Assembly (NCBI GenBank): GCA_044892525.1 | Contig: CM097885.1 | Location: 4,776,001 to 4,840,000 of the forward strand | Reading direction: 5' to 3' | From: Schmidtea polychroa | Taxonomy: Eukaryota | DNA: 64,000 nucleotides | In this document: positions 3,900-61,049 of the stretch, one piece after another | Numbering within the stretch: the first letter of the stretch is position 1 | How the letters are laid out: each line of letters opens with the position of its first letter | The notes under the pieces: generated by a model | What the model was told of the DNA's origin: nothing | Database searches by the model: none | Seen by the model: the letters and a program-made list of their open reading frames with translations, nothing else | Made by a program: the position numbers and the translations under genes

Positions 3900-3949
3900 A
3901 GTAGTAGTAGCTGTCGCTGTCGTTGTCGAAGTCGTAGTCGTGGTCGTGA

Positions 3950-3980
<31 letters not shown>

Positions 3981-5875: not shown

Positions 5876-5999
5876 ACTAATGAAGTAATAAAAAATTTAT
5901 TAATCTCTTAGATTTTAAGAATAATTTATTACTTAAATTGGCTTCCCTAATTTTGCGCAGCTTGGTATCTGATTTTTGAATTATTATTACTATTATTAT

Positions 6000-15037: not shown

Positions 15038-15460
15038 AACAAAGACATATGACTCATCAAGGTCATTGAAACAAAGACCATGACTCATCTTATGACGCAT
15101 CAAGGTCATTGAAACAAAGACCATGACTCATCCTATGAATCATCAAGGTCATTGAAACAAAGACCGTGACTCATCGAGGTCATTGAAACAAAGACCGTGA
15201 CCCATCGAGGTCATTGGATGACTCGCCAAGGTCATTGGATGACTCACCAAGGTCATTGAAACAAAGACCATGACTCATTCAAGGTCATTAGATAACTCAT
15301 CAAGGTCATTGAAACAAAGACCATGACTCATTCAAGGTCAATGGATGACTCATCAAGATCATATTTTTAAGGTCAAAGTCATATTTTTAAGGCCAAGGTC
15401 ATATTTTTAAGGTCAATGTCATATTTTTAAGGTCAAGGTCATATTTTTAAAGTCAAACGT
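15038..15460 (+). repeat. Tandem array of ~30-40 bp units containing TGACTCA and TCAAGGTCA
   Basis: Unit 'tcaaggtcattgaaacaaagaccatgactca' repeated with variants, followed by 'aaggtcatatttttaaggtc' units. Confidence 0.9.
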
Positions 15461-15713
15461 TCACTAAAGGGTATCATTCGAAAGGTATTTGAGAGATCTA
15501 TCTAATGGTCATACCCTCGAAGGTATATGATGGGTCAATAACCTTCAAAGGGTCAAAAACCTTCTAATTTTTTCAAACTTTATAATATATATATATATAT
15601 ATATATATCAGTCGAAAGGTATTTGAGAGGTAAGTATGATGGTCATACCCTCGAAGGTGAATGGTGGGTCAATAACCTTCAAAGGGTATCCAAAATTAAA
15701 TATTTTTAAAATC

Positions 15714-15802
<89 letters not shown>

Positions 15803-17384
15803 TTCAAAAGTACTTTTGATGGTGAGTTCGAAGGTCCAAGGGTCCAAGGTTCAAAAATTTTAAAACCTTATAATATACATATCAAACAAAAGGTATTTGA
15901 GATGTAAGTATCATGGTCATACTTTCAAAGGTTTATGAATGGTCTTGAAACTTCAAACCTTCAAAGGGTCCAAAACCTTTAAAAATTATACATATAGATA
16001 TATACATGTCAAATAAAAGGTAATACAAAGGTGAGCATGATAATCATACCCTTGAAGGTCATACTCTCGAAAGGGTCCAAGGTTCAAATTTTTTAAAACC
16101 TCATAATATACATATCAAATAAAAGGTAATACAAAGGTGAGTATGATGGTCATACCCTTGAAGGGCATACCCTCGAAAGGGTCCAAGGTTCAAATTTTTT
16201 AAAACCTCATAATATACATATCAAATAAAAGGTAATTCAAAGGTGAGTTCGAAGGTCCATAGGTCGAAGGGTCCAAGGTTCAAATTTTAGAAACATTATA
16301 ATATACATATCAAACAAAAGGTAATTCAAAGATGAATATGATGGTCTAAGTTTGAAGGTCAAAGAGTCCAAGGATCCAAGGTTTAAATTTTTCAAACCTT
16401 ATATTATACATATCAAACAAACGGTAATAAAAAAGTACTCATCGATGACTCATTTATTTTTTGAACAAATGCAATGACGCGCCCATGGAATTTATTATTT
16501 ATTACTATCAATAGTATTATTATTATTTATTATTATTAATTTCAATATTATTTATTATTATCAATAGTATTATTATTATTTTCGAAAATATTTTCAAAAT
16601 TTATTATTAATATTACTATTATTATTATCATCAAGTTTTAATTATCAAGGAAATTTAAACAAAGACCATGACTCAGTCGCTGAGTCATCAAGGTCATTCT
16701 ATTTTTAGTAACATTTTGAATATATTTTTAGTAACATTTTTGATCCGATCATTGATCCGATGACTCGCCAAGGTCGTTCTATTTTTAGTAACAAAGACAT
16801 CTATTTTTGTTCCAGCGGTTTATTTTTGTTTTAATTATAGATTAAGAAATAATTTAATTTTGTTTAAATCGTTGATTATTTAATAATATTTTTATTTTTG
16901 TTTTAATTATCGAATACGTAATAATTTAATTTTGTTTAAATTGTTAATTATATAATAATATTTTTATTTTTGTTTTAATTATTGAATACGTAATAATTTA
17001 ATTTTGTTTAAATTGTTAATTATATAATAATAATTTTATTTTTTGTTTTAATTATCGAATACATAATAATTTCATTTTGTTTAAATCGTTGATTATGTAA
17101 TAATAATATTTTTGTTTTGATTTTCGATTACTCAATAATTTAATTTTGTTTAAATCGTTGATTATATAATATTTTTTGTTTTAATTATTGATTACGTAAT
17201 AATTTAATTTATCATTATTATTGGGAAAGATAATAATGCCGCGCGGAAGATGTTATTTTCAAAATTATTATTTTCGAAGTTTTAATTAATATTATTATAG
17301 AGTCCGAGTTTATCCGACAAAATATTGTGTCCCCCTATGTGTATTTGTCGTAAGGGTACTAGTCACATTCAACATGTCCCAAGG

Positions 17385-17434
<50 letters not shown>

Positions 17435-17910
17435 ACTTTATAATTATTATTTTATTATTTTCAAGGTCATATTATTATTTTTCAAAATATTATTATTTTT
17501 CTAAATAGTTTTATTTTCAAGGTCATATTATTATTTTTCAAAATATTATTATTTTATTATTTTCAATATCATATTATTATTTTTCAAAATATTATTATTC
17601 TCAAGGTCATATTATTACTTTTTCAAATATTATTATTTTCAAGGTCATATTATTATTCTTCAAAATATTATTAATTTCAAGGTCATATTATTATTTTTCA
17701 AATATTATTATTTTCAAGGTCATATTATTATTCTTCAAAATATTATTAATTTCAAGGTCATATTATTATTTTTCAAAATATTATTATTCTCAAGGTCATA
17801 TCATTATTTGTTCCATATGTTTGAAAAACTGTAGTAGATGTCAGAGTTGTGGTGTTATAATCGATGAATCTCATTCAGTGTATTTTGTGAAATTAATGTT
17901 GTAAAACTCC

Positions 17911-18001
<91 letters not shown>

Positions 18002-18007
18002 TATTAC

Positions 18008-18067
<60 letters not shown>

Positions 18068-18407
18068 TATTATTATTATTATTATTTGCGAAGTTCTTAT
18101 TATTTTATTTTCGATGTTTTATTATTATTTACTTCATAATTCATAATTCATAATTTTTAACGTTTTCATCATTTTCAACATTTTCATCATTTTCATAATT
18201 TTCAAGATTTTCATAATTTTCACGATTTTCAATATTTTCAAAATTATTTTCAAATTTCTTATTATTTATTTTCAAAGTATATTATTATTATTATTATAAT
18301 ATATGCTCCTAGTCTATCCGACAAAATATTTTGTCCCCCTATGGGTACTGCTCACACTCAACAGGTTGCAAGGGTACTAGTCATGCTTATTATTATTGTT
18401 ATACAAT

Positions 18408-18707
18408 ATGATGTTACTTAGACATTTGAAGCTTCTACCATGGTTACAATTTCTAGATTTTGAAAACACTAATTTGATTTTTGAATGGATAGCAAAACCC
18501 GATTTGATTGAAAATAATCTAACGGAAAAACTGTACGATGTTAAGAAACGGTATTTAACTTGTTCAATTTGTAAAGAAAATCAAGTTTCGGTTTTGTATT
18601 TGCCGTGTGGTCACGTAATTGTTTGTTCTAAGTGTCACGAGAAGAATGTTCACAATTGTCAAGCCTGTTCAACACTGATTAATGAATATCATAATATATA
18701 CATGTAA
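18408..18707 (+). CDS. Small IAP-type C3HC4 RING-finger protein (left-arm copy, 99 aa from first ATG)
   Basis: CSICKENQVSVLYLPCGHVIVCSKCHEKNVHNCQAC with terminal NIYM. Confidence 0.85.
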   Translation: MMLLRHLKLLPWLQFLDFENTNLIFEWIAKPDLIENNLTEKLYDVKKRYLTCSICKENQVSVLYLPCGHVIVCSKCHEKNVHNCQACSTLINEYHNIYM

Positions 18708-20462
18708 GTTCTCAATACAAATCAATACAAAGTCAAATGAATTATTACCATACATAATGACGGTACTATAATGTAGGAAATTTTCAAACATTGAATAATA
18801 TGAAATCATCTTGGTAATTAAATATATTGGGCGCAACTACCAAATGTTGATGATATGATGGATGGTTTGACATTTATGATATTATTTTTAGATTATTCAG
18901 AATGAAATATACCCATGAGTTCATCAAAATGGGAAAAAGATCTTCTCAAGAACCATGAAGATGCTGGAAAGGCCGAAGAAACCCTAACCAATATTTTAAA
19001 GTTGAAATTATGTGTTACAGTATTATTACTGTTTCGTAAATAAATGTTTAATTTGTTTTTATAAATTTATTGTTTTATTTCAATACTTTTTGATTAAAAC
19101 ATATTCATTTTGTTTTAATATTTGTATTAAATTTTTAAATAGTGTTATTTATATATATGGAAATTTACATACAATTATATTTACAATTATTATAAATCAT
19201 AATGATGCTTTTCTTCTGTTCATTGATTCTCCTCTGATATTACTGCCATAATCATCTTCGACAAAATGTAAAGATAATATTTCTAGTGTCTTTGTTAATC
19301 ATGCCCATTTATTGCAAAGTCTTTGTTAATTATGCACTTGTATTGCAAATTTATTAGTCATACAATTATATTATTTTTTTTTCATGCCCTGACATAATAT
19401 TATTATTTTTAATTTTATTATTATGATTATTTAACAATACCATATAGCAAATTTTTAGGGAATTTAGTGAAAAGTACATGGTTATTTTAAATATAGGAAT
19501 TTCTTAAGTAAAATATTGCCAGATAAATTTACCAATTTAGTTAGAAATCCATGGTTTTTGGCTGTACCATTTAATTAAAATATTCTTGGATTCATAACAA
19601 TTTTTTTTTATATAGTTGATAGTAATACCAATTATCTCAATTATTTAACTAGAAACATAACAGAATTCTTAGGTAATATAGTATTTTTTAGTTAATTTAT
19701 AAATATTATCTGACATTTTGATGTGTTTGACAACAAATTATTCAATAAAAACCATAGCATATTGTAAGTTTTTATATAAAGTCTGAATTTATCCGACAAT
19801 ATATTTTGTCCCCCTATGTGTATTTGTCGTAAGGGTACTGCTTACATTCAACATGTCTCAAGGGTATATTAATTAAAGCACATGTATAGTAGTTAAAAAT
19901 TCTTAGGTAATTTAGTGAGAAATGGATGATCATAGATATCAGAAATTCGTGAATATTTTGAATGTAACTTACCGAATTCTCATTTCGAGCGACTAATTTA
20001 TTGGTTAACTTTGTCATGTTTAGTCATGTAAAATAATATTAAGCAAAAGGTAAGATATGAATATTTAGTATTTCATAGGTAATTTATTCATGTAATGTTC
20101 ATTACAATAGTTAATACAACTTCGTGAGAAATGCATATTCATTAATAACAACATATATTTATTGATAATTTTGGTAGAAAGTCTTTATCATTTGGAGTAA
20201 ATGTCTATCTTTGTTTGAGGCAAAAAGGAGTCATAATAGAAACATGATCATTTAGTTATCATTTAACCAATTAAGGTGCTTATTAGTTAGAAATATAGGG
20301 TTACAATTCTTTTCTTATTTATTGAGATGATCATTGCGCCCAATATAATTAATTACCAAGATGATTTCATATTATTCAATGTTTGAAAATTTCCTACATT
20401 ATAGTACCGTCATTATGTATGGTAATAATTCATTTGACTTTGTATTGATTTGTATTGAGAAC

Positions 20463-20762
20463 TTACATGTATATATTATGATATTCATTAATCAGTGTTG
20501 AACAGGCTTGACAATTGTGAACATTCTTCTCGTGACACTTAGAACAAACAATTACGTGACCACACGGTAAATACAAAACCGAAACTTGATTTTCTTTACA
20601 AATTGAACAAGTTAAATACCGTTTCTTAACATCGTACAGTTTTTCCTTTAGATTATTTTCAATCAAATCGGTTTTTGCTATCCATTCAAAAATCAAATTA
20701 GTGTTTTCAAAATCTAGAAATTGTAACCATGGTAGAACCTTCAAATGTCTAAGTAACATCAT
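20463..20762 (-). CDS. Small IAP-type RING-finger protein (right-arm copy)
   Basis: Inverted copy of 18408-18707; 3 amino-acid differences, all N-terminal to the RING. Confidence 0.85.
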   Translation of the reverse strand: MMLLRHLKVLPWLQFLDFENTNLIFEWIAKTDLIENNLKEKLYDVKKRYLTCSICKENQVSVLYLPCGHVIVCSKCHEKNVHNCQACSTLINEYHNIYM

Positions 20763-21395
20763 ATTGTATAACAATAATAATAAGCATGACTAGTACCCTT
20801 GCAACCTGTTGAGTGTGAGCAGTACCCATAGGGAGACAAAATATTTTGTCGGATAGACTAGGAGCATATATAATAATAATAATAATAATATACTTTGAAA
20901 ATAAATAATAAGAAATTTGAAAATAATTTTGAAAATATTGAAAATCGTGAAAATTATGAAAATCGTGAAAATTATGAAAATGATAAAAATGTTGAAAATG
21001 ATGAAAACGTTAAAAATTATGAATTATGAATTATGAAGTAAATAATAATAAAACATCGAAAATAAAATAATAAGAACTTCGCAAAAAATAATAATAATAA
21101 TAGTAATAATTAAAATAACAATAATAATAATATACTTTGAAAATAATTCTTTGAAAATAATTCTTTGAAAATAATACTTTGAAAAATATTCGATGAAAAG
21201 TTTCTGAAATAATCATGAAAATGTTGAAAATCGTGAAAATATTGAAAAATGTTGAAAATGATGAAAATATTGAAAATGATGAAAACGTTAAAATTTATGA
21301 AAATGTTCCTAAAAATAATCATCAAATATTGAAAATCGTAAATTGATGCAGAAAATAAAATAATAAGAACTTCACAAATAATAATAATAATAATA

Positions 21396-21516
<121 letters not shown>

Positions 21517-21747
21517 GGAGTTTTACAACATTAATTTCACAAAATACACTGAATGAGATTCATCGATTATGACACCACAACTCTGACATCTACTACAGTT
21601 TTTCAAACATATGGAACAAATAATGATATGACCTTGAGAATAATAATATTTTGAAAAATAATAATATGATATTGAAAATAATAAAATAATAATATTTTGA
21701 AAAATAAAAATATGACCTTGAAAATAATAAAATAATAATTATAAAGT

Positions 21748-21794
<47 letters not shown>

Positions 21795-23170
21795 CCTTGG
21801 GACATGTTGAATGTGACTAGTACCCTTACGACAAATACACATAGGGGGACACAATATTTTGACTCTATAATAATATTGATTAAAACTTCGAAAATAATAA
21901 TTTTGAAAATAACATCTTCCGCGCGGCATTAATATCTTTCCCAATAATAATGATAAATTAAATTATTACGTAATCAATAATTAAAACAAAAAATATTATA
22001 TAAGCAACGATTTAAACAAAATGAAATTATTATGTATTCGATAATTAAAACAAAAAATAAAATTATTATTATATAATTAACAATTTAAACAAAATTAAAT
22101 TATTACGTTTTCAATAATTAAAACAAAAATAAAAATATTATTATATAATTAACAATTTAAACAAAATTAAATTATTACGTATTCGATAATTAAAACAAAA
22201 ATAAAAATATTATTAAATAATCAACGATTTAAACAAAATTAAATTATTTCGTAATCGATAATTAAAACAAAAATAAACCGCTGGAACAAAAATAGATGTC
22301 TTTGTTACTAAAAATAGAACGACCTTGGCGAGTCATCGGATCAATGATCGGATCAAAAATGTTACTAAAAATATATTCAATGGCGCGTCATTGCATTTGT
22401 TCAAAAAATAAATGAGTCATCGATGAGTACTTTTTTATTACCGTTTGTTTGATATGTATATTATAAGGTTTGAAAAATTTAAACCTTGGATCCTTGGACT
22501 CTTTGACCTTCAAACTTAGACCATCATATTCATCTTTGAATTACCTTTTGTTTGATATGTATATTATAATGTTTCTAAAATTTGAACCTTGGACCCTTCG
22601 ACCTATGGACCTTCGAACTCACCTTCGAATTACCTTTTATTTGATATGTATATTATGAGGTTTTAAAAAATTTGAACCTTGGACCCTTTCGAGGGTATGC
22701 CCTTCAAGGGTATGACCATCATACTCACCTTTGTATTACCTTTTATTTGATATGTATATTATGAGGTTTTAAAAAATTTGAACCTTGGACCCTTTCGAGG
22801 GTATGACCTTCAAGGGTATGACCATCATACTCACCTTTGTATTACCTTTTATTTGATATGTATATTATGAGGTTTTAAAAAATTTGAACCTTGGACCCTT
22901 TCGAAGGTATGACCTTCAAGAGTATGATTATCATGATCACCTTTGTATTACCTTTTATTTGACATGTATATATCTATATGTATAATTTTTAAAGGTTTTG
23001 GACCCTTTGAAGGTTTGAAGTTTCAAGACCATTCATAAACCTTTGAAAGTATGACCATGATACTTACATCTCAAATACCTTTTGTTTGATATGTATATTA
23101 TAAGGTTTTAAAATTTTTGAACCTTGGACCCTTGGACCTTCGAACTCACCATCAAAAGTACTTTTGAATG

Positions 23171-23201
<31 letters not shown>

Positions 23202-23424
23202 GATTTTAAAAATATTTAATTTTGGATACCCTTTGAAGGTTATTGACCCACCATTCACCTTCGAGGGTATGACCATCATACTTACCTCTCAAATACCTTT
23301 CGACTGATATATATATTATGAGGTTTGAAAAAATTCGAAGGTTTTTGACCCTTTTAAGGTTATTGACCCACCATATACCTTCGAGGGTATGACCATTAGA
23401 TAGATCTCTCAAATACCTTTCGAA

Positions 23425-23486
<62 letters not shown>

Positions 23487-23781
23487 AAGTTTGAAAAAAT
23501 TCGAAGGTTTTTTACCCTTAGAAGGCCGAGGACCCACCATACACCTTCGAGGGTATGACCATTAGATAGACCTCTCAAATACCTTTCGAATGATACCCTT
23601 TAGTAAAGGTTTGACTTTAAAAATATGACCTTGACCTTAAAAATATGACCTTGACCCCAGAGGTGACATGTGCCAGTGGTGACACATCCCACTACTGGAT
23701 GCCTTTGTAAAACTAAAAATGGTAAAGGTTTATACTTGAAGCCCTTCGAGCCCCATTGATACCATTTTTAATACCATAAAA

Positions 23782-45442: not shown

Positions 45443-47707
45443 TATTATGTATAATGAAATAATAGTTCAATAAAATGGAATATTGCATTGTCATTTCTAT
45501 GGCATTATAAGCTCTTGCCCCTAATAAGCCATATAATAACACGTAAATAATATGTTGTGCCTATGTAAAATTAAATAAAAATATTTAACACAAAAACTCA
45601 AAAATAAAATAAAAATGCAAAATTAATTAACATTTTGAAAATTGGGACAGTTGTGATTTTGTGGAACAAATAATACTTATTGTGTTGAGCTACTTATTCT
45701 GATCGAGAACACGAGGAGTTTGATTATAAATTCTGTCCAACCAAATAATAGTATTAACTCCAATCAATTTAGATAGAGCCATAGCGTTGACAATGTATAT
45801 TACGGGGTATTGAGGCCTTGTAATATGTAGAATATGCAGTATCTGAATACATTTTTCTGTGAATTACTCACAATTACTTACCTTTACCCCCCCATGTGGA
45901 AGAGGTTGTCAGTTAAGGAGGTACATGAATAAAGAAAAGAGAAGTTCAGAGAAAAATCAAATAAGCCATTATGGGGCAACCCAAACTAAATTCTACGCAA
46001 GCTAATTAAACGTCATAAAAATAAATAATTATAAAAATCTAAAGATAGAAAAATTCCTCCAAAAAAATTTCTCAATAAATTAAATTGAGTGGGGATTTGT
46101 GTAATTTTTGACATATATTTATTTTTGAAACGAGCAATTTATACAATATCCGCTCGGTTTTTCACATATAGCCATATGAGCTGGAATAATTCCGGACCAG
46201 CAACATTTCCTGAACTAGGATTTCGTTTCATCGCCAGACTCAGTTAAATGCAACGCGTTGCCGAGCTATCCAAGATTTATATCTCGCGGGATTTTAATTA
46301 CTTTTAAAGCCGGTTATTATTTGCCGTTGAAATATTTTAATTTTTTTAACAACAGATTTTTCTCAACTGGGATTTCATTCATGATCATTTAGATGGGCTT
46401 TAATTCAGTTGTTCGGGAATGACTCTTCATATAAGTTGTCCAGGAATTGAGGGATGATAATTCTATTACTTTTTATTCACTTTCTCGACGGGAGTAGGGA
46501 GTTAGTGGCCCGCGGCAGCAATAGGGGGGGGGGGGTAAAAAATGTTGCAAACTTTTGATTGCATAACTTTTTCCGTAGACATTTTTTGATTACATAATTG
46601 TTGCCGTAATGCCCAATGTTTTCTGGGATTTTAAATACAAATTTTTTTTTTTTTTTTTTTTTTTTTCAATAAACAAGCCAAGGATAAATATTATTTGGGT
46701 GGGTCTCCTTGGTCCTGAGAATTTCAATAGAAAAAGGTAGTCTTCAATAAAAAAGCATGGATTTTTCACACTATAGTGAGGGGATCTTCTTGGTCATGAG
46801 AATTTCAATAGAAAAGGTGGTTTACATTAAAAAACGCATAGTAAATTTTTAAAATAAAGTAAATTATGGGTCTAAAATTTAAAAATAAAGTAAATGATGG
46901 GTCTAAAAATTTAAGTAAATCAAGGTTCAGATTTATTTTTGAAATAAAGTAAATTATGGTCTAAATAAGTAAATTATGGGCTAAGATTTTTCAATTAAAG
47001 TAAATAATGGTTCTAAAAAATTAAATTACAGTAAATTATGGTCCAAATTTTTAAATTAAAGTAAATTATGGTTCTTAAAAATTAAATTAAAGTAAATTAT
47101 GGTTCTTAAAAATTAAATTAAAGTAAATTATGGTTCTTAAAAATTAAATTAAAGTAAATTATGGTCAAAATTTTTGAATTACAGTCCAAAAATTTAAATT
47201 AAAGTAAATTATGATCCAAATTTTTAAATTAAAGTAAATAATGGTTCTAAAAAATTAAATTAAAGTAAATAATGGTCCAAATATTTTAAATTACAGTAAA
47301 TAATGGTTCTAAAAATTAAATTACAGTAAATAATGGTCAAAAATTTTAAAATTAAAGTAAATTATGGTTCTAAAAATTAAATTAAAGTTAATTAAGGTCC
47401 AAATTTTAAAATTAAATAATCAATGGTAAAAAAAAAATTTAAATTAAAGTTAAATAAGTAAATTAAAGTAATAATTTTTAAATAAGTAAATTAAAGTAAT
47501 GTAATAAGTAAATTAAAGTAAGATTTTTAAATTTATTAACAAAAATAGAAGGTGTTTGAGAATTGAAATTTTTTAATGGAAATTTTAATGAATTATTTTT
47601 TAAGTAATTTTTAATAGAAATTTTTATGAATAATTTTCAATGGTAATTTTTAATGGAAATTTTAATAGAATAATTTTTAAGATAATTTTTAATGAAAATT
47701 TTTATGA

Positions 47708-47781
<74 letters not shown>

Positions 47782-47968
47782 TAATATTAATAATATATCA
47801 ACCAAATACTATACAACACATAAAAAATTAACTAAACACATTAAAATAACTAGACACATAACGAAACATATAAACATTAACTAAACACATAAAAATGAAC
47901 TAGACACATAACAAACATAAAAATTTACCAAATAACAAATGTAAAGATATAAAATTTATTCAATAAAA

Positions 47969-50900
47969 TTAGTCCTCATCGGACAAAATAACGTCATCGA
48001 TATCGATGTCATCTTCTCCAAAATCTTCATTTAATTCTTCCTCATCTTCTCCATCATTTTCTCCAACATTTTCTGAAACATTTTCTGCAACAATTTCTCC
48101 AACATTTTCTCCAATATTTAATTCACTTAATCTTACATGCCCATATGCAAGACTAGTATTTTGCCCCACCCAAACCCTTTTGTCATCTTTGTTAGTTAGT
48201 GCTATTTTTGTGTTTTTAATTGTAAAAATTTGATGATTTTTGCTTGTTATTTTAGTCTGAGGAACCGAAAAAATCTGGTTAGTGTTATAACAATCCAGGT
48301 ATGACTGATGTTTTATGTCACTACCTTTCAATGTTACACCTTTAGCCTTTTTTGTTTCCTCATCACCCAACAAGCTATAACATTTAGGTCTAAGAAAAAC
48401 CCACTCCTTATATTTAAGACCTTTATTCTCGTCTTTGAACTTTCCAATGACTGAATCAAGGTTCTTACTATATAAGGAATGACAACTATTGTAATTGGAA
48501 GTATCCAATAAATTATCTCGAACCATTGCAGGTAAAAGAACCTTAAGTTTGCAGTTAATGACTTCGAGGAAAAAAGAATCTGTATCACCTGCAACGATAT
48601 TAATTTTACAATTAAACTCATTGCGAAATGATTCCAGATCCTTATATTGCAATTCATACATTCTAAGTTTAGATAGATCAAGTACAGATTGACCAATGTA
48701 ACTCGGTCTATCTAAACATATAGAATCGGAATTCAATAGTGCTGCAATTAAATTATCTGCTATTTTAATAGATTTTTTAAAAGTCGGTTTTGACGAATAT
48801 TTAACTAATTTACCGGCAGTTGTACAAAGACGAAGATTCATTCTTCTCTTTAAATTTTCAACTGTTTTGCCGTATAAACTATTATTTAGCAATTTATAAT
48901 AATTTTTATCTAAGCTATTTACGCTTTTTGATCTTAATTCAGTATTTGTATCTATATATTTTTTAAAAATTGGTGATTGCTTAAATCTTACACCCCTATT
49001 TACACGTGTTACTTTAACACCAAGTTCCAAATATAATTTTAATAATCTCCAATGAATAACATAATTAGATTTTGGAAGATGAGTTAATAATAATTTTTCA
49101 ACCTTAGACCCAGCAGGTTTCATTTTTTCAGCAGCTACAGGGAAATCATCCAACTTATCATGAAGCTCAGAAGGAATTACAAGATCAACTTCAAGTGTGT
49201 ATCCATAAGACAAAGATTCAAGATTTAAATTCCTACATTCATCCATTATTTTATCAAATCCATCAAGAACCCAACAAAATTCGCCACAAGGTAATGATTG
49301 ACTTAAAGCCCAGCCATAAAGATTATTAATATCTATATATAGTAACTCGGTGTTCTCGTCGGTTTTTACGTAATGCTTATTCACAAAAGTAAGACCGCCT
49401 CTTATTCCACCCTCATAAAAGCTAAACATTTCGTTTTCAGTTATGAGTTCAATTGGTTCATTTAAAGACATTAATGCAGAAGACCAAGACATGCCTGGAA
49501 TTCCGAAATAATTCAATGGTTCCAATCTATTGTGAGCAATGGATTTCAACCGAAACTGATGAAAGAAATCAGCCAAAAGAAAACAATCAAGTTTTAGGTA
49601 GATCATCATATAATCTAATAAAGTTACGCAATTAGTTTCTACCCAAATCTCCTGAGCTTTTTCATACTCAAGCTCAGTGACACCCTCCCAGATTGGTGGT
49701 AATTCATAAGTAGTTTGGAGAATATCTAAAGAAGTGGCGAAATTATAAGGGAAGATTCCTTTTTCACTTACTATGGTGCCAGAAAAAGCAGAATTAGTAA
49801 AAGGCAAAGAATTCAAAGTTTTGACTGCTTTAGCCAAAGAATCATTGACAAATTGATACGAATCAATGAATCTTAGGCTAATTTTACCTAAATGAGCAAT
49901 CAAAGATATAAATTTTTGCGTAGTTATTGGGATGCACCCTAAATTCCAATTTTTAAATTTATTTAATCCATATTTAAGTATATGGTGCATATCGTATCCC
50001 TTCAAGTTGTGAAATACGATAGGCAAAATTTTATTTATTTTTCTATTTACGTTACATGTGCTACAAGCTGCACCCAAGTATTTCCCCGTAAAATGATCGT
50101 GATCTCTAACAGGATCCACGATAGATTTCAAACAAAGATAACAAACCGTTGAATTAATGAATTGTTGTTGCTCAATTTTCGTTAATTTAATCATTGGTTT
50201 CCTACCCATTTTATAATAAAAAGGAAGAACCTTATTTAATGCTATATCCTCTATAGCACTTAAAAAACTCTCGACGCAATCTAAACCTATGAACTGCTGA
50301 TAAGATTTAGATCCGTCAAAGTTATTTACTAGTAAAAGACCAGCAGATATTGGCATGTGTCGCTGAAAATGATCATTATCAGAAGGTAAAATAGCCTCAA
50401 AATCGGCATAAACTACAAAAGGAGGAGTTACTGTTTTCGACCAGTCAGTAAACTGTAAGAATTTATTTTGAGGGAAAGTATAAAGAGTTGTTCCTAATTG
50501 ATTACGTTTGCATAATATTTCATGTTTTTCTAGAGCGTTTCTATTATTAAACCCATTCAAACACCGATGGCACCATAATGAACGTATGCATGTAGGACAA
50601 GTAGTGTTGATACCACAATTCAATAACCTATTTAAATTGCTTATAGCAACGTAATGGAAATTGTTCCCTTTATTTAATAATAGTAAATTAATTACAGTTC
50701 CATTTAAAACTTTGGAACGATGTATAATGTCTAAATGTGGGTGTTTTAAAACGTAATTATCTATTAATTGTTTGTTATTGTCATAAGAAAAAACGTTAAT
50801 TATTAAACCAGGATTTTTGGCCTCGAATTTTCTAATATCTTTTAATTTCATGGGTAAGTCCAATGGATTATATATTAATTCAGATAAATTATAACTGGAT

Positions 50901-51553
50901 CTCCTATTTCTAGCATAACTACTAACCTCATCATATTTTAAAATAGCTAAAATGCTATATAAAAAACATGAATCATCGGTGTTTTTTATATTAATTAAAC
51001 AATATTTATTTTTTAGATAAGTAGGTAGTTCAATGAAACTCCTACCACTTAATCTACTTAGCCTACTTATCTTTGTTATGGTGAAGTGAATTTCTGTTAT
51101 TTTTTTTTTTATGATCCAGCTACTTCCTAACTCTGTGATATTACTTATTTTCTCGTTTAGTTCCCTAATGCCTTCGTCAAAAAATGATGCAGTTAAAGGC
51201 TTTGCATAATTTGAGATATTATTAACCTTTATTTCCCCGTCTTTTTCAAATTCGATTGTTATTCCGAATTGAATTTTGACGGAGCCTAATTCGTTAATAA
51301 TATCTCGTAATTTTTTTATTAGTTGTTCAGGAAATATTATTTCTTTTATATTTAAGTCGCTTGTATTTAAGCTTAATATTTGATGGGTACCTCTTAGATC
51401 TTTTTGTATTATTGGAACATTTCCACCTATTTGTATTATATTTAATCCATCCCAAGAGTCAAGGGAAATATTATCTAATCCGACCTGGGATTCAACAACC
51501 AATCCATCATGGGATTCGACAACCAATCTATCATTGGATTCCACAAAAGGCAA
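47969..51553 (-). CDS. Protein-primed family B DNA polymerase (left-arm copy); true start probably upstream at 51753
   Basis: LINIKNTDDSCF, YADFEA, DHDHFTGKYLGAACSTCN, FHNLKGYD, YIDINNLYG, KLLNNSLYGK, GDTDS, KAKGV, acidic tail. Confidence 0.95.
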   Translation of the reverse strand: MPFVESNDRLVVESHDGLVVESQVGLDNISLDSWDGLNIIQIGGNVPIIQKDLRGTHQILSLNTSDLNIKEIIFPEQLIKKLRDIINELGSVKIQFGITIEFEKDGEIKVNNISNYAKPLTASFFDEGIRELNEKISNITELGSSWIIKKKITEIHFTITKISRLSRLSGRSFIELPTYLKNKYCLINIKNTDDSCFLYSILAILKYDEVSSYARNRRSSYNLSELIYNPLDLPMKLKDIRKFEAKNPGLIINVFSYDNNKQLIDNYVLKHPHLDIIHRSKVLNGTVINLLLLNKGNNFHYVAISNLNRLLNCGINTTCPTCIRSLWCHRCLNGFNNRNALEKHEILCKRNQLGTTLYTFPQNKFLQFTDWSKTVTPPFVVYADFEAILPSDNDHFQRHMPISAGLLLVNNFDGSKSYQQFIGLDCVESFLSAIEDIALNKVLPFYYKMGRKPMIKLTKIEQQQFINSTVCYLCLKSIVDPVRDHDHFTGKYLGAACSTCNVNRKINKILPIVFHNLKGYDMHHILKYGLNKFKNWNLGCIPITTQKFISLIAHLGKISLRFIDSYQFVNDSLAKAVKTLNSLPFTNSAFSGTIVSEKGIFPYNFATSLDILQTTYELPPIWEGVTELEYEKAQEIWVETNCVTLLDYMMIYLKLDCFLLADFFHQFRLKSIAHNRLEPLNYFGIPGMSWSSALMSLNEPIELITENEMFSFYEGGIRGGLTFVNKHYVKTDENTELLYIDINNLYGWALSQSLPCGEFCWVLDGFDKIMDECRNLNLESLSYGYTLEVDLVIPSELHDKLDDFPVAAEKMKPAGSKVEKLLLTHLPKSNYVIHWRLLKLYLELGVKVTRVNRGVRFKQSPIFKKYIDTNTELRSKSVNSLDKNYYKLLNNSLYGKTVENLKRRMNLRLCTTAGKLVKYSSKPTFKKSIKIADNLIAALLNSDSICLDRPSYIGQSVLDLSKLRMYELQYKDLESFRNEFNCKINIVAGDTDSFFLEVINCKLKVLLPAMVRDNLLDTSNYNSCHSLYSKNLDSVIGKFKDENKGLKYKEWVFLRPKCYSLLGDEETKKAKGVTLKGSDIKHQSYLDCYNTNQIFSVPQTKITSKNHQIFTIKNTKIALTNKDDKRVWVGQNTSLAYGHVRLSELNIGENVGEIVAENVSENVGENDGEDEEELNEDFGEDDIDIDDVILSDED

Positions 51554-52641
51554 TCCGACCTTGGATTCAAAAGAAGAAGTATCTAATTTAATTTTTTAAT
51601 TTTTATTATTTTTTTTTCTATAGTTGAGGGTCTTTTAAAAACACTATCTTTTTTAAAATTAAACCTATCTAAATGATTTTTATGTTTATTATAAAAAACG
51701 CTATATGTTACGGGGTCACTAGTCTTACATACGGGACATATTTTAAAACACATTTTGACGCTAAAGTTGACTTATTTAACATTTTCATAATAATTTAATA
51801 AAAATAATGTGATGAACCCACAAAGTAATATCATTTTTCATCAAATTACAAAACAGTAATAACGTTTTCATAAAATTGTAACAAAGTAATAACATATTTC
51901 AGATAAATTTCAACAAATTTGTAAAATATTTATCAAATTGTAACTAAAATAATAAAAATATTGCAACAAAGTAATAAAATAATAATGGTAATTAAGACAA
52001 ATCAATACATTATTTCGAAGACGGACAACAAATTAAAAAGAATATTGTAACTAAAATAATAAAAATATTGCAACAAAGTAATAAAATAATACAACATTTT
52101 AAACTCTAGATCAATCCATTTTATAGAAAATTAAATTTTATCTATATAATATATGAATAAATATCCAAGGAAATTACGTTAACGTATAATAAATACAAAT
52201 TTATCGTAAAAACATGTGTGTATTACACACAAAACAAGATACATAATTTCTAATCAATCCATTTTATAGAAAATTAAATTTTATCTATATATTATATGAA
52301 TAAAATCCTAAGAAAATTACGTTAACTGTATGAAAAATACAAATTTATCATAAAAACATGTGTGTATTACACACAACATACGAGACATAATTTTTAATCA
52401 AGCTATTTTATAGAAAATTAAATTTTATCTATATAATATATGAATAAAAATCCAAGAAAATTACGTTAACCGCGCGAAAAACTACAAATTTATTGTAAAA
52501 ACATGTGTGCATTACACACAAAGCATCAAACTGAAATTGTAATTGCGCCATGTTGTAGAGAATTAAATTCTGCCTATACATGGTTACACTTAAATCTCGA
52601 TCAGACATGTGAAAAGAGACATAAAAGATAAAAAACAGTAG

Positions 52642-53786
52642 AGTAGTATGATGTGGGCCCGCTCGGCCACATATACCCCCTCCCCCCGTGTGTAAAATAA
52701 TGTTAATAATAATATTTATATATCAGTATATAGATTTTGCACTGGGCTTTAAAATAAGTGTTTGATTAATAAATTCGGATGATGGAAACATTACTTTTGG
52801 GAAGAAAAAAAGTAGGTCACCGCTGGACCAATTAATTTAAAAAAATTACGTAATAGTTCTAAAAATATTAGGCATCATTCTAAAAGTATTTGGCATCGTT
52901 CTAAAAGTATGACGTAATCGTTCTAAAAATATTAGACACCATTCTAAAAATATTTGGCATCGTTCTAAAAATATTAGACATCGATTACGTAATAGTTCTA
53001 AAAATATTAGGCATCGTTCTAAAAATATTAGGCATCGTTCTAAAAATATTTGGCATCATTCTAAAATATTAGACATCATTCTAAAAATGTGATGAGTCAT
53101 TGTCTTTGTTCTAAAAATGTGATGAATCATCGTATGATAAAAATCTATATCTCATTAGAAAGTTCTTGCACAGAGCTTTAAAATAAGCTATCGATCAATA
53201 TAATATGTTGGCAGGAACATTAATTTTTGGGATGAAAAAAAGTGTGAGCCCGCCCGGCCAATTAATAATATTTTGGAAAATAATAATAATTTAACGTTGA
53301 AAAGATGGTGGTCATCAATTGTTAATAACATTAAAACTATTAAAGATATATATGATACCTATAGCTCATTCGAAAGGTCTTGGACTGAGCTTTAAGAATA
53401 GGTATCGTCCAATAAAATCTGTTGGCAGGAACATTAATTTTTGGGATGAAAAAAAGTGTGAGCCCGCCCGGCCAATTAATAATATTTTGGAAAATAATAA
53501 TAATTTAACGTTGAAAAGATGGTGGTCATCAATTGTTAATAACATTAAAACTATTAAAGATATATATGATACCTATAGCTCATTCGAAAGGTCTTGGACT
53601 GAGCTTTAAGATGAGGTATCGGTCAATAAAATCTGTTGGCAGGAACATTAATTTTTGGGATGAAAAAAAGTGTGAGCCCGCCCGGCCAATTAATTAAAAC
53701 AAAAAATTTAAAAAAAAATTTTTTTCCCGGGGGGGGGGAGGGGGGGAGGGGGTATATGTGGCCGGGGGAGCTCCAATCATACTACT
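52642..53786. repeat. Central segment of the palindrome, with AGTAGT...ACTACT ends, ~22-bp tandem repeats and ~213-bp tandem repeats
   Basis: 'gttctaaaaatattaggcatc' units at ~52856-53120; 'gttggcaggaacattaatttttgggatg' at 53208, 53421 and 53635. Confidence 0.8.
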
Positions 53787-54874
53787 CTACTGTTTTTTAT
53801 CTTTTATGTCTCTTTTCACATGTCTGATCGAGATTTAAGTGTAACCATGTATAGGCAGAATTTAATTCTCTACAACATGGCGCAATTACAATTTCAGTTT
53901 GATGCTTTGTGTGTAATGCACACATGTTTTTACAATAAATTTGTAGTTTTTCGCGCGGTTAACGTAATTTTCTTGGATTTTTATTCATATATTATATAGA
54001 TAAAATTTAATTTTCTATAAAATAGCTTGATTAAAAATTATGTCTCGTATGTTGTGTGTAATACACACATGTTTTTATGATAAATTTGTATTTTTCATAC
54101 AGTTAACGTAATTTTCTTAGGATTTTATTCATATAATATATAGATAAAATTTAATTTTCTATAAAATGGATTGATTAGAAATTATGTATCTTGTTTTGTG
54201 TGTAATACACACATGTTTTTACGATAAATTTGTATTTATTATACGTTAACGTAATTTCCTTGGATATTTATTCATATATTATATAGATAAAATTTAATTT
54301 TCTATAAAATGGATTGATCTAGAGTTTAAAATGTTGTATTATTTTATTACTTTGTTGCAATATTTTTATTATTTTAGTTACAATATTCTTTTTAATTTGT
54401 TGTCCGTCTTCGAAATAATGTATTGATTTGTCTTAATTACCATTATTATTTTATTACTTTGTTGCAATATTTTTATTATTTTAGTTACAATTTGATAAAT
54501 ATTTTACAAATTTGTTGAAATTTATCTGAAATATGTTATTACTTTGTTACAGTTTTATGAAAACGTTATTACTGTTTTGTAATTTGATGAAAAATGATAT
54601 TACTTTGTGGGTTCATCACATTATTTTTATTAAATTATTATGAAAATGTTAAATAAGTCAACTTTAGCGTCAAAATGTGTTTTAAAATATGTCCCGTATG
54701 TAAGACTAGTGACCCCGTAACATATAGCGTTTTTTATAATAAACATAAAAATCATTTAGATAGGTTTAATTTTAAAAAAGATAGTGTTTTTAAAAGACCC
54801 TCAACTATAGAAAAAAAAATAATAAAAATTAAAAAATTAAATTAGATACTTCTTCTTTTGAATCCAAGGTCGGA

Positions 54875-57800
54875 TTGCCTTTTGTGGAATCCAATGATGG
54901 ATTGGTTGTCGAATCCCATGATGGATTGGTTGTTGAATCCCAGGTCGGATTAGATAATATTTCCCTTGACTCTTGGGATGGATTAAATATAATACAAATA
55001 GGTGGAAATGTTCCAATAATACAAAAAGATCTAAGAGGTACCCATCAAATATTAAGCTTAAATACAAGCGACTTAAATATAAAAGAAATAATATTTCCTG
55101 AACAACTAATAAAAAAATTACGAGATATTATTAACGAATTAGGCTCCGTCAAAATTCAATTCGGAATAACAATCGAATTTGAAAAAGACGGGGAAATAAA
55201 GGTTAATAATATCTCAAATTATGCAAAGCCTTTAACTGCATCATTTTTTGACGAAGGCATTAGGGAACTAAACGAGAAAATAAGTAATATCACAGAGTTA
55301 GGAAGTAGCTGGATCATAAAAAAAAAAATAACAGAAATTCACTTCACCATAACAAAGATAAGTAGGCTAAGTAGATTAAGTGGTAGGAGTTTCATTGAAC
55401 TACCTACTTATCTAAAAAATAAATATTGTTTAATTAATATAAAAAACACCGATGATTCATGTTTTTTATATAGCATTTTAGCTATTTTAAAATATGATGA
55501 GGTTAGTAGTTATGCTAGAAATAGGAGATCCAGTTATAATTTATCTGAATTAATATATAATCCATTGGACTTACCCATGAAATTAAAAGATATTAGAAAA
55601 TTCGAGGCCAAAAATCCTGGTTTAATAATTAACGTTTTTTCTTATGACAATAACAAACAATTAATAGATAATTACGTTTTAAAACACCCACATTTAGACA
55701 TTATACATCGTTCCAAAGTTTTAAATGGAACTGTAATTAATTTACTATTATTAAATAAAGGGAACAATTTCCATTACGTTGCTATAAGCAATTTAAATAG
55801 GTTATTGAATTGTGGTATCAACACTACTTGTCCTACATGCATACGTTCATTATGGTGCCATCGGTGTTTGAATGGGTTTAATAATAGAAACGCTCTAGAA
55901 AAACATGAAATATTATGCAAACGTAATCAATTAGGAACAACTCTTTATACTTTCCCTCAAAATAAATTCTTACAGTTTACTGACTGGTCGAAAACAGTAA
56001 CTCCTCCTTTTGTAGTTTATGCCGATTTTGAGGCTATTTTACCTTCTGATAATGATCATTTTCAGCGACACATGCCAATATCTGCTGGTCTTTTACTAGT
56101 AAATAACTTTGACGGATCTAAATCTTATCAGCAGTTCATAGGTTTAGATTGCGTCGAGAGTTTTTTAAGTGCTATAGAGGATATAGCATTAAATAAGGTT
56201 CTTCCTTTTTATTATAAAATGGGTAGGAAACCAATGATTAAATTAACGAAAATTGAGCAACAACAATTCATTAATTCAACGGTTTGTTATCTTTGTTTGA
56301 AATCTATCGTGGATCCTGTTAGAGATCACGATCATTTTACGGGGAAATACTTGGGTGCAGCTTGTAGCACATGTAACGTAAATAGAAAAATAAATAAAAT
56401 TTTGCCTATCGTATTTCACAACTTGAAGGGATACGATATGCACCATATACTTAAATATGGATTAAATAAATTTAAAAATTGGAATTTAGGGTGCATCCCA
56501 ATAACTACGCAAAAATTTATATCTTTGATTGCTCATTTAGGTAAAATTAGCCTAAGATTCATTGATTCGTATCAATTTGTCAATGATTCTTTGGCTAAAG
56601 CAGTCAAAACTTTGAATTCTTTGCCTTTTACTAATTCTGCTTTTTCTGGCACCATAGTAAGTGAAAAAGGAATCTTCCCTTATAATTTCGCCACTTCTTT
56701 AGATATTCTCCAAACTACTTATGAATTACCACCAATCTGGGAGGGTGTCACTGAGCTTGAGTATGAAAAAGCTCAGGAGATTTGGGTAGAAACTAATTGT
56801 GTAACTTTATTAGATTATATGATGATCTACCTAAAACTTGATTGTTTTCTTTTGGCTGATTTCTTTCATCAGTTTCGGTTGAAATCCATTGCTCACAATA
56901 GATTGGAACCATTGAATTATTTCGGAATTCCAGGCATGTCTTGGTCTTCTGCATTAATGTCTTTAAATGAACCAATTGAACTCATAACTGAAAACGAAAT
57001 GTTTAGCTTTTATGAGGGTGGAATAAGAGGCGGTCTTACTTTTGTGAATAAGCATTACGTAAAAACCGACGAGAACACCGAGTTACTATATATAGATATT
57101 AATAATCTTTATGGCTGGGCTTTAAGTCAATCATTACCTTGTGGCGAATTTTGTTGGGTTCTTGATGGATTTGATAAAATAATGGATGAATGTAGGAATT
57201 TAAATCTTGAATCTTTGTCTTATGGATACATACTTGAAGTTGATCTTGTAATTCCTTCTGAGCTTCATGATAAGTTGGATGATTTCCCTGTAGCTGCTGA
57301 AAAAATGAAACCTGCTGGGTCTAAGGTTGAAAAATTATTATTAACTCATCTTCCAAAATCTAATTATGTTATTCATTGGAGATTATTAAAATTATATTTG
57401 GAACTTGGTGTTAAAGTAACACGTGTAAATAGGGGTGTAAGATTTAAGCAATCACCAATTTTTAAAAAATATATAGATACAAATACTGAATTAAGATCAA
57501 AAAGCGTAAATAGCTTAGATAAAAATTATTATAAATTGCTAAATAATAGTTTATACGGCAAAACAGTTGAAAATTTAAAGAGAAGAATGAATCTTCGTCT
57601 TTGTACAACTGCCGGTAAATTAGTTAAATATTCGTCAAAACCGACTTTTAAAAAATCTATTAAAATAGCAGATAATTTAATTGCAGCACTATTGAATTCC
57701 GATTCTATATGTTTAGATAGACCGAGTTACATTGGTCAATCTGTACTTGATCTATCTAAACTTAGAATGTATGAATTGCAATATAAGGATCTGGAATCAT

Positions 57801-58459
57801 TTCGCAATGAGTTTAATTGTAAAATTAATATCGTTGCAGGTGATACAGATTCTTTTTTCCTCGAAGTCATTAACTGCAAACTTAAGGTTCTTTTACCTGC
57901 AATGGTTCGAGATAATTTATTGGATACTTCCAATTACAATAGTTGTCATTCCTTATATAGTAAGAACCTTGATTCAGTCATTGGAAAGTTCAAAGACGAG
58001 AATAAAGGTCTTAAATATAAGGAGTGGGTTTTTCTTAGACCTAAATGTTATAGCTTGTTGGGTGATGAGGAAACAAAAAAGGCTAAAGGTGTAACATTGA
58101 AAGGTAGTGACATAAAACATCAGTCATACCTGGATTGTTATAACACTAACCAGATTTTTTCGGTTCCTCAGACTAAAATAACAAGCAAAAATCATCAAAT
58201 TTTTACAATTAAAAACACAAAAATAGCACTAACTAACAAAGATGACAAAAGGGTTTGGGTGGGGCAAAATACTAGTCTTGCATATGGGCATGTAAGATTA
58301 AGTGAATTAAATATTGGAGAAAATGTTGGAGAAATTGTTGCAGAAAATGTTTCAGAAAATGTTGGAGAAAATGATGGAGAAGATGAGGAAGAATTAAATG
58401 AAGATTTTGGAGAAGATGACATCGATATCGATGACGTTATTTTGTCCGATGAGGACTAA
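54875..58459 (+). CDS. Protein-primed family B DNA polymerase (right-arm copy); true start probably upstream at 54675
   Basis: Identical to the left copy except two residues noticed (NDRL/NDGL, GYTL/GYIL); catalytic motifs intact. Confidence 0.95.
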   Translation: MPFVESNDGLVVESHDGLVVESQVGLDNISLDSWDGLNIIQIGGNVPIIQKDLRGTHQILSLNTSDLNIKEIIFPEQLIKKLRDIINELGSVKIQFGITIEFEKDGEIKVNNISNYAKPLTASFFDEGIRELNEKISNITELGSSWIIKKKITEIHFTITKISRLSRLSGRSFIELPTYLKNKYCLINIKNTDDSCFLYSILAILKYDEVSSYARNRRSSYNLSELIYNPLDLPMKLKDIRKFEAKNPGLIINVFSYDNNKQLIDNYVLKHPHLDIIHRSKVLNGTVINLLLLNKGNNFHYVAISNLNRLLNCGINTTCPTCIRSLWCHRCLNGFNNRNALEKHEILCKRNQLGTTLYTFPQNKFLQFTDWSKTVTPPFVVYADFEAILPSDNDHFQRHMPISAGLLLVNNFDGSKSYQQFIGLDCVESFLSAIEDIALNKVLPFYYKMGRKPMIKLTKIEQQQFINSTVCYLCLKSIVDPVRDHDHFTGKYLGAACSTCNVNRKINKILPIVFHNLKGYDMHHILKYGLNKFKNWNLGCIPITTQKFISLIAHLGKISLRFIDSYQFVNDSLAKAVKTLNSLPFTNSAFSGTIVSEKGIFPYNFATSLDILQTTYELPPIWEGVTELEYEKAQEIWVETNCVTLLDYMMIYLKLDCFLLADFFHQFRLKSIAHNRLEPLNYFGIPGMSWSSALMSLNEPIELITENEMFSFYEGGIRGGLTFVNKHYVKTDENTELLYIDINNLYGWALSQSLPCGEFCWVLDGFDKIMDECRNLNLESLSYGYILEVDLVIPSELHDKLDDFPVAAEKMKPAGSKVEKLLLTHLPKSNYVIHWRLLKLYLELGVKVTRVNRGVRFKQSPIFKKYIDTNTELRSKSVNSLDKNYYKLLNNSLYGKTVENLKRRMNLRLCTTAGKLVKYSSKPTFKKSIKIADNLIAALLNSDSICLDRPSYIGQSVLDLSKLRMYELQYKDLESFRNEFNCKINIVAGDTDSFFLEVINCKLKVLLPAMVRDNLLDTSNYNSCHSLYSKNLDSVIGKFKDENKGLKYKEWVFLRPKCYSLLGDEETKKAKGVTLKGSDIKHQSYLDCYNTNQIFSVPQTKITSKNHQIFTIKNTKIALTNKDDKRVWVGQNTSLAYGHVRLSELNIGENVGEIVAENVSENVGENDGEDEEELNEDFGEDDIDIDDVILSDED

Positions 58460-58646
58460 TTTTATTGAATAAATTTTATATCTTTACATTTGTTATTTGG
58501 TAAATTTTTATGTTTGTTATGTGTCTAGTTCATTTTTATGTGTTTAGTTAATGTTTATATGTTTCGTTATGTGTCTAGTTATTTTAATGTGTTTAGTTAA
58601 TTTTTTATGTGTTGTATAGTATTTGGTTGATATATTATTAATATTA

Positions 58647-58714
<68 letters not shown>

Positions 58715-61049
58715 TCATAAAAATTTTCATTAAAAATTATCTTAAAAATTATTCTATTAAAATTTCCATTAAAAATTACCATTGAAAATTATTCATAAAA
58801 ATTTCTATTAAAAATTACTTAAAAAATAATTCATTAAAATTTCCATTAAAAAATTTCAATTCTCAAACACCTTCTATTTTTGTTAATAAATTTAAAAATC
58901 TTACTTTAATTTACTTATTACATTACTTTAATTTACTTATTTAAAAATTATTACTTTAATTTACTTATTTAACTTTAATTTAAATTTTTTTTTTACCATT
59001 GATTATTTAATTTTAAAATTTGGACCTTAATTAACTTTAATTTAATTTTTAGAACCATAATTTACTTTAATTTTAAAATTTTTGACCATTATTTACTGTA
59101 ATTTAAATTTTAGAACCATTATTTACTGTAATTTAAAATATTTGGACCATTATTTACTTTAATTTAATTTTTTAGAACCATTATTTACTTTAATTTAAAA
59201 ATTTGGATCATAATTTACTTTAATTTAAATTTTTGGACTGTAATTCAAAAATTTTGACCATAATTTACTTTAATTTAATTTTTAAGAACCATAATTTACT
59301 TTAATTTAATTTTTAAGAACCATAATTTACTTTAATTTAAAAATTTGGACCATAATTTACTGTAATTTAATTTTTTAGAACCATTATTTACTTTAATTGA
59401 AAAATCTTAGCCCATAATTTACTTATTTAGACCATAATTTACTTTATTTCAAAAATAAATCTGAACCTTGATTTACTTAAATTTTTAGACCCATCATTTA
59501 CTTTATTTTTAAATTTTAGACCCATAATTTACTTTATTTTAAAAATTTACTATGCGTTTTTTAATGTAAACCACCTTTTCTATTGAAATTCTCATGACCA
59601 AGAAGATCCCCTCACTATAGTGTGAAAAATCCATGCTTTTTTATTGAAGACTACCTTTTTCTATTGAAATTCTCAGGACCAAGGAGACCCACCCAAATAA
59701 TATTTATCCTTGGCTTGTTTATTGAAAAAAAAAAAAAAAAAAAAAAAATTTGTATTTAAAATCCCAGAAAACATTGGGCATTACGGCAACAATTATGTAA
59801 TCAAAAAATGTCTACGGAAAAAGTTATGCAATCAAAAGTTTGCAACATTTTTTACCCCCCCCCCCCTATTGCTGCCGCGGGCCACTAACTCCCTACTGAC
59901 GGGGGACTTTTATATTTTATAAAATAGAGTTTCTTAACGGAGAATCTTTAATTTCTTTCGTGACGACGGGAATATATAAAAGTGGTTGTTGGAGGCATAC
60001 GTAAAAATGTTTATGTAGAAAATCCATAATTATTACTGTATAATATTATTTATTTTCTAGCATTACACACACAAACGTTTGGATTGCATATTGTAAATTG
60101 AACTCGTTTGAAATCGACTAATTGAAATTATCATTTACATATAACAGAAGCTGGAAACAGGAATAATTTTTTAAATTAAAAATAAAATCTCTCAAAATAA
60201 ATATGTTGGGATTTTATAAATTGATGAGAGATAAAAATGAAATGCACAAAGATAAAGTTATATTCAAAACAATTAAAAATCAATATTTCTCAGGGAAACA
60301 AAATGAGTAGGTAGCAAAACAAACACAGATATAATAATTTCAAATCGATTGGCGATTCTTGGGCTGTGTTATTTTAAAAGTTAATTAATTGATTGAAATT
60401 TTAATTAGGTCATAAATCATATCAGTTAGAAAAACAAAATTTTCAAGTTTGTCAAGCTTAAGTAAAAATAATTTAATTTGTTTTAATTCTCAGTCTTTAA
60501 AGGCTGATAAAATTTAATTATTTTTTAAGAATTTGGAAGATCACAAGATGAGAAATTGGTTTGATCATATGAAAGGAGCAGAATAGTCAGTATAGTTGTC
60601 AGTATAATTGTCAAAGAAAATTTTTTGCAAGTATAAAGTTAAAGAATAAAAGGTGTGCTAGACAAAGTTAAAGAGGAAAGTATTGTTGGTTGATTATTAT
60701 ATCAGATCAGAATGGTATTAGTTATTTGAGGAGGTTAATACTTGTGGTCATAGTGTTAATAGTGCTGTGTTGTGCATTTTCTTTTAATAAACATAGAGAA
60801 TTCTCGATTTCAGATTACGAGCTATTTTCCTGCCGATGCCAAAAAAATGTTTTTGAGTCAAAACTTTAAACCCTTAGTCCTCTGGCAGTTTCGTTCCCCT
60901 GAATAAATAAATGAGTTACAGTATTATAGCTACAAAATCCAAAGATCTATCATAAAAAAATACTTTCCCGCATTATTTACCACATCAGTTACTCTTAGCA
61001 GTAGATGTAAAATAATTTTAAAAATCAAATATTTTTAAATTACAATTTA

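Follow-up and report, generated by a model that had tools for sequence, protein, structure and literature searches.

The most plausible reading of the 1145-bp centre (52642-53786) of a 13.4-kb palindromic element is a Polinton-type mini-element that was captured and became the fixed spacer of a palindromic, polymerase-only Polinton. The centre is probably the switch point of arm copying. From its sequence and from analogous systems, a probability of about one half is given to a nested mini-element in which pairing of the ends led to a template switch or copy-back that duplicated an arm and inverted the target site. The element lies in the window, the whole 64-kb stretch of DNA that was analysed.

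The palindromic host and a second palindrome

The host is a real 13.4-kb insertion (46493-59897), with the direct 6-bp target duplication GACGGG on both sides (46487-46492 and 59898-59903, + strand). Its two ends are identical AGTAGGGAG termini, with AGTAG at 46493 and 59897. The left arm (46493-52641) comprises this outer terminus, a G12 run, 30/31-bp subterminal tandem repeats, pPolB and, upstream of pPolB, 144-bp tandem repeats; the right arm (53787-59897) is its mirror. Each arm carries one intact pPolB ORF of 1194 aa that points outward (47969-51553 on the - strand and 54875-58459 on the + strand), and the two copies differ at 2 residues. When aligned over 6195 columns, the 6.1-kb arms are 99.2% identical. 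The differences amount to 5 substitutions, 2 of which alter pPolB residues, and 3 indels in simple or tandem repeats.

A Pfam search with the 1194-aa ORF itself gave no match, while its top homologue, 64% identical, carries PF03175. The only ORFs of at least 80 aa in 46493-59897 are one 96-aa frame in repeats, the two pPolB ORFs and two 120-aa frames inside pPolB; none for an integrase, ATPase, protease or capsid protein was found in this interval. The element thus has two hallmarks of Polintons/Mavericks, a protein-primed family B polymerase and AG/AGT-type inverted ends with a 6-bp duplication, and lacks the integrase and morphogenesis genes that mark an autonomous member. Judged by its sequence, it is a non-autonomous, polymerase-only Polinton derivative. 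A short Cys-rich frame starting with ATG lies upstream of the pPolB ORF (54675-54875 and the mirror position), which suggests a candidate spliced 5' exon of pPolB. A role of the centre as pPolB promoter was considered and is not needed, as the Cys-rich upstream exon and the start are likely to lie inside each arm.

The window also contains a Polinton at 11660-32352 with 718-bp terminal repeats and the duplication GGTTAG. Its ORFs include a PLA2-like frame, an rve integrase, an A32 ATPase and a 1386-aa pPolB-like frame; no major capsid gene was identified in it. Nested in this Polinton is an 8.7-kb palindromic element (14961-23696) with the duplication GGATGC. Each of its arms carries a RING-finger ORF, and its two ends differ from each other after ~42 bp of matching sequence. 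Neither an inner repeat nor an AGTAG/CTACT pair is present in the 1.5-kb centre of this second palindrome, and its arms end abruptly.

Ends and interior of the centre

As predicted, the centre of the host starts with AGTAGTATGAT at 52642 and ends in ATCATACTACT at 53786. The imperfect inverted ends, originally put at about 45 bp, were found to be 46 bp long and identical at 40/46 positions. The flanks of the centre are inverted, also as claimed, with CAGTAG on the left (52636-52641, + strand) and CTACTG on the right (53787-53792) and no direct target duplication. The flank CAGTAG is a candidate for the surviving half of the mini-element's target site. That the centre sits on the mirror axis is arithmetically correct (52642 + 53786 = 47969 + 58459 = 106428, the sum shared by the two pPolB stop codons). 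This position supplies no separate evidence, since an inverted repeat that extends the arms with no indel in between will always be centred there.

The left inner end (52642-52687, + strand) is of Polinton type, with an (AGT)2 start, a hairpin from nt 5 (ATGTG/CACAT), a CCGC..GG motif at +18 and a C run. Its counterpart on the right (53741-53786, - strand) has a weak hairpin. The inner repeat consists of 11 perfect bp, which form part of the perfect arm match, followed by 6 mismatches within 52653-52663 and 24 perfect bp. This density of 6 mismatches per 46 bp compares with 5 substitutions per ~6100 bp in the arms (p = 3e-12 at the arm rate). With 24 perfect bp following the mismatches, the inner repeat therefore predates the last arm copying. 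The inner ends are read as Polinton-type termini and not as eroded arm. A local flip/flop of the mismatch cluster was rejected, as its left and right versions are not reverse complements by eye.

A filter for end-like sites (AGTAG[TG], GC of at least 50%, C5/G5 run) returned 7 sites in the 64-kb window and not one in any of 100 Markov simulations. Apart from those of the centre, all 5 sites lie at element ends, 3 of them with a target duplication; those at 931 and 2638 are called ends solely by their likeness to the outer end.

Flank and inner end together read AGTAG AGTAG (52637-52646), and the chance of finding AGTAG at 52637-52641 is ~0.001. Because of this flanking AGTAG, the boundary of the centre could be placed 5 bp further out. 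The boundary at 52642 is favoured, since counted from there the CCGC motif is at +18, as it is in the outer ends. The doubled AGTAG is unexplained; target preference, slide-back duplication and joining microhomology are candidate causes.

Over 30 nt, the left inner end has 24 matches to the right inner end and 19 to the 14961-23696 terminus, whereas identity between inner ends and host outer ends is only 16/30 (left inner end) and 14/30. A common layout and fold are seen in the left inner end and the end at 14961: the stem starts at nt 5 and includes ATGTG/CACAT, and G9 is bulged. In the hairpin alignment of these two sequences, 10/10 positions pair in both, 7 identically, and the remaining 3 are changed on both sides (1 Watson-Crick, 2 G-T). 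The hairpin is strong at the left inner end (z -2.5) and weak both at 14961 (z -0.9) and at the right inner end (z +0.7), where it appears to have been lost or to have decayed. A pattern made post hoc from the left inner and 14961 ends matches only 14961, 23696 and 52642 in the window. The 9 matches of a hairpin-end pattern in viral contigs, none at a contig end, were taken as chance. The motif CCGC-N0-3-GG-N0-4-CAAT, which was defined after the sites had been seen, has 7 matches in the window against a simulated mean of 0.14. Three are placed at +18 of termini (the left inner end and the outer ends) and four in units of the centre.

In the minimum-energy folds of both strands, the inner ends pair with each other, with 44 and 43 of their first 60 nt bound to the mirror end and duplex energies of -49 and -46 kcal/mol. 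In the right end, a G-quadruplex-type run starts at 53729 on the + strand (one of 4 regex matches in the window) and could stall a polymerase. Rfam gave no match over 51500-55000.

Between the ends, the centre is built from repeats, all read on the + strand. A diverged first copy (about 70%) of a ~214-bp unit ends in CCGCTGGACCAAT (52690-52836), an array of a 21-bp repeat follows at 52838-53092, and 2.6 copies of the 214-bp unit (95%) occupy 53145-53694. Each of these copies is closed by the 19-mer GTGAGCCCGCCCGGCCAAT, which is identical to the left inner end at 16/19 positions. The 96-aa ORF across the 214-bp repeats had no match in a Pfam search and is regarded as a by-product of the repeat, not as a gene. 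Such a gene-less interior made of an end-like unit would be the build of a non-autonomous mini-element. Inward-facing inverted repeats with (AGT)2 are present as well, while the direct 6-bp target duplication of such an element is replaced by the inverted pair CAGTAG/CTACTG; the centre therefore resembles a non-autonomous Polinton mini-element but is not classed as one. Other letters were found before 52696 in 26 contigs of run X10 and 9 of X11, where they resemble the preceding tandem unit. This suggests that the number of units in the centre differs among copies.

Copies, variation and relatives

Part of the centre is contained in 13 public runs from 5 studies, all of them contigs, and the contigs of 4 runs were aligned to 51000-53840. 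Runs with small word shares (X3-X9) were left out of account for habitat or host; one of them, X3, covers 29/30 bins. In 4/4 runs, the arm and the centre each have very many, variable copies. The three centre bins have 0.36-3.4 times the summed pPolB-bin depth in these runs, contig depth not being equal to copy number. Centre and arm abundance are only of the same order; one centre per two arms predicts 0.5. At the left junction the relative depth of the bins is 1.08 (X10), 0.52, 0.18 and 0.06, low in 3/4 runs, and at the right junction it is 0.30, 0.12, 0.03 and 0, low in 4/4. This low depth may result from dropout at the G/C runs and is not taken as absence. An arm–centre junction bridged by 31 letters on each side was not seen among the 32 listed of 86,728 contig pieces, nor was a loose contig end at 52642 or 53786 among the 24 listed of 1680.

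At all 26 of the variable arm sites listed, both arms have the same base. At 51848 they agree although ~97% of the X10 depth has another base. Shared bases at 26/26 sites, some of them against the majority, argue that the arms were copied from each other within the lineage. The arm difference nearest to the centre (51876/54552) is 766 bp away. Flip/flop of the centre is invisible to short reads, since turning the centre round leaves the local sequence unchanged when the arms beside it are nearly identical.

Among the 32 listed pieces, 4 diverged ones (85-89%) extend past 52641; their match includes AGTAG and breaks off at 52646, with 1, 1, 10 and 37 letters left unaligned. Four other relatives of the arm run on in unlike sequence beyond 52596, 52625 (two pieces) and 52633. 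The diverged pieces are close to the 85% likeness floor, and their stops at 52596-52646 are possibly alignment truncation. The stop at 52646 can mean that an old inner terminus is conserved there and continues differently, or that AGTAG was already present and this centre was joined at it.

The 21-mer of the inner end had 0 matches in viral, metagenome and prokaryote-genome contigs, and no free-standing centre was found in these. The pPolB sequence alone found no relative in the viral collection. With an alignment of 42 pPolB sequences, the best 80 of 463 metagenome loci and 13 viral loci were obtained, the nearest relatives being 40-54% identical and on short contigs. End-like motifs were scanned for in 93 loci and inverted repeats in 15 (longest 64 bp), and neither a palindrome nor a centre was seen, a negative that says nothing at this shortness of the contigs and this distance. 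One contig of the viral collection (L089) has inward-facing AGTAGTGGAG... ends at 192 and 11301 around pPolB, both well inside the contig and with only a brief match.

Origin of the palindrome

Two explanations of the inner ends had been offered in the original prediction. Internal replication origins found little support, given the identity of only 16/30 to the outer ends and the apparent loss of the right hairpin. The second explanation, a mini-element whose ends triggered template switching, fared better. It is consistent with inward-facing ends that are older than the arm duplication, with the predicted panhandle of -46 to -49 kcal/mol, with the inverted flanks and with an analogue among invertrons. 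Against it stands the lack of a free-standing copy in the collections searched. The low depth of the junction bins, the lack of a bridging piece among the 32 listed of 86,728 and a hairpin that is strong at the left inner end only also count against it. Moreover, inner ends are not required for a palindrome here, since the second palindrome (14961-23696), a copy-back product without such ends, lacks them; those of the mini-element are thus at most one route.

The favoured course of events begins with a gene-less mini-element in which two 46-bp ends enclose a tandemly repeated, end-derived unit. This mini-element would have joined a parent Polinton ~1.1 kb upstream of the pPolB ORF, either by integrase insertion or by a switch at a shared AGTAG. 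During protein-primed strand-displacement replication, the two ends would pair as a panhandle, or the nascent strand would jump from end to end. Synthesis running back along the pPolB arm would then yield an arm, the centre and the mirrored arm. In the process, the remainder of the parent, with integrase and capsid module, would be discarded, leaving inverted flanks in place of a direct repeat. The product would have its own polymerase and the same origin at both outer ends, and integrase presumably supplied in trans would have integrated it with the 6-bp duplication that is observed. The centre would now be the spacer of a high-copy subfamily and would mark the inner limit of arm-to-arm copying. 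This order of events is conjectural, as a single copy does not reveal it. A head-to-head dimer of two whole elements was rejected, as the inner ends would then face outward.

In a different order, the palindrome would have formed first by copy-back and the mini-element would have landed later in its spacer, where a switch at the ends reset the boundary and removed the old spacer. This late arrival is a tentative alternative that we regard as rather unlikely. The second palindrome without inner ends speaks for it, as do the 85-89% arm relatives in which the sequence next to the arm is unlike the left end of this centre. Nevertheless, the same switch is needed in addition to an earlier event, and the stops of these relatives near the 85% floor perhaps reflect truncation. 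An artefact is very improbable, be it an assembly or library fold-back or AGTAGT ends arising by chance at an eroded arm boundary. Arms that are 99.2% identical and the lack of a junction-spanning piece among the 32 listed of 86,728 might be expected of an artefact. Fold-back is made unlikely by the GACGGG duplication, which matches on both sides of the element; the 5 substitutions and 3 indels between the arms, two inner ends that differ and 0 end-like sites in 100 simulations also count against an artefact or chance.

It is also doubtful that the inner ends are selected as working termini. An outer end and the far inner end would then delimit a 7.3-kb monomer (46493-53786 or 52642-59897) from which a 3' fold-back rebuilds the palindrome in each cycle, or the centre would be released as a mobile satellite. 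Working termini would account for continuous homogenisation of the arms and for the perfect terminal 11 bp. The common stop at 52646, directly after AGTAG, in all 4 of the listed diverged pieces that extend past 52641 fits such termini, and so does the post hoc CCGC..GG motif at +18 of the left inner and outer ends with its four recurrences in the centre. These points are opposed by the identity of only 16/30 and 14/30 between inner and outer ends, by the apparent decay of the right inner hairpin and by the absence of a monomer from the 64-kb window. In addition, protein-primed initiation normally requires a free end. Similarly doubtful, and the boldest reading, is a Polinton family that carries a second, inward-facing pair of working termini and would cycle between a 7.3-kb one-arm monomer and the 13.4-kb palindrome, with fold-back at the inner end priming re-synthesis of the arm and flipping the centre in every round.

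To our knowledge, Polinton replication is known almost solely from sequence. The element shares (AGT)2-type ends, the 6-bp duplication, a protein-primed PolB and a 13-kb size with Polintons/Mavericks (PMC8097293; bioRxiv 10.1101/2023.08.22.554363). As given in the available text of these sources, (AGT)2 is the commonest end motif of vertebrate Mavericks (PMC8097293), and intact vertebrate Mavericks have terminal repeats of 46-1447 bp, the shortest being as long as the 46-bp inner repeat described here. Unlike these elements, the host has 6.1-kb arms, pPolB twice and a second, inward-facing pair of ends at its centre, and is without integrase, ATPase, protease and capsid ORFs. In the literature covered, which did not extend to Repbase reports, supplements and most subscription papers, no palindromic Polinton with duplicated pPolB and inner termini was found.

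Rearranged adenovirus vectors reportedly have a copy of the left arm at either end, with the cassette between them. They differ from the present element in being engineered and non-integrating. Internal inverted repeats in such vectors are known to cause replication-induced rearrangement of a protein-primed linear genome (PMC2518115, citing Steinwaerder et al. 1999); the available text of PMC3185507 names the rearranged vectors only. An analogous arm duplication with an inverted target site is seen in the integrated invertron plasmids pAL2-1 and kalilo of fungal mtDNA (PMC1864894). These differ, according to the text available from the same source, in being mitochondrial accidents without an integrase. 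In the host element, unlike in pAL2-1 and kalilo, the inverted flanks are the arm of another Polinton and the product is a high-copy nuclear mobile element. In C. elegans eri-6/7, Polinton terminal repeats rearrange neighbouring DNA with inversion of a host gene, and pPolB with a terminal repeat but without integrase is found at 10 loci (bioRxiv 10.1101/2024.01.15.575659). The eri-6/7 case differs in that the available text proposes ectopic recombination for the inversion and not arm duplication within an element.

With its arm-centre-arm structure, a 46-bp switch point, sites that distinguish the arms and many copies, the element makes the panhandle or template-switch model testable with existing long reads. 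If the model is right, there should be parents that escaped rearrangement and have CAGTAG as a direct duplication, mini-elements that stand free, and centres in both orientations. It would also connect nuclear Polintons with a type of rearrangement that has hitherto been reported from fungal invertrons and adenovirus vectors.

Fragments of sister families were observed at 1-931, 2638-7000 and 9994-10569. They comprise a right end 82% like the outer end of the host, a left end of related sequence and part of a pPolB at 76%. At the sister element end at 931, an inverted copy of the last 7 bp lies 2 nt further on in the adjoining LINE-like DNA (924-941, by eye).
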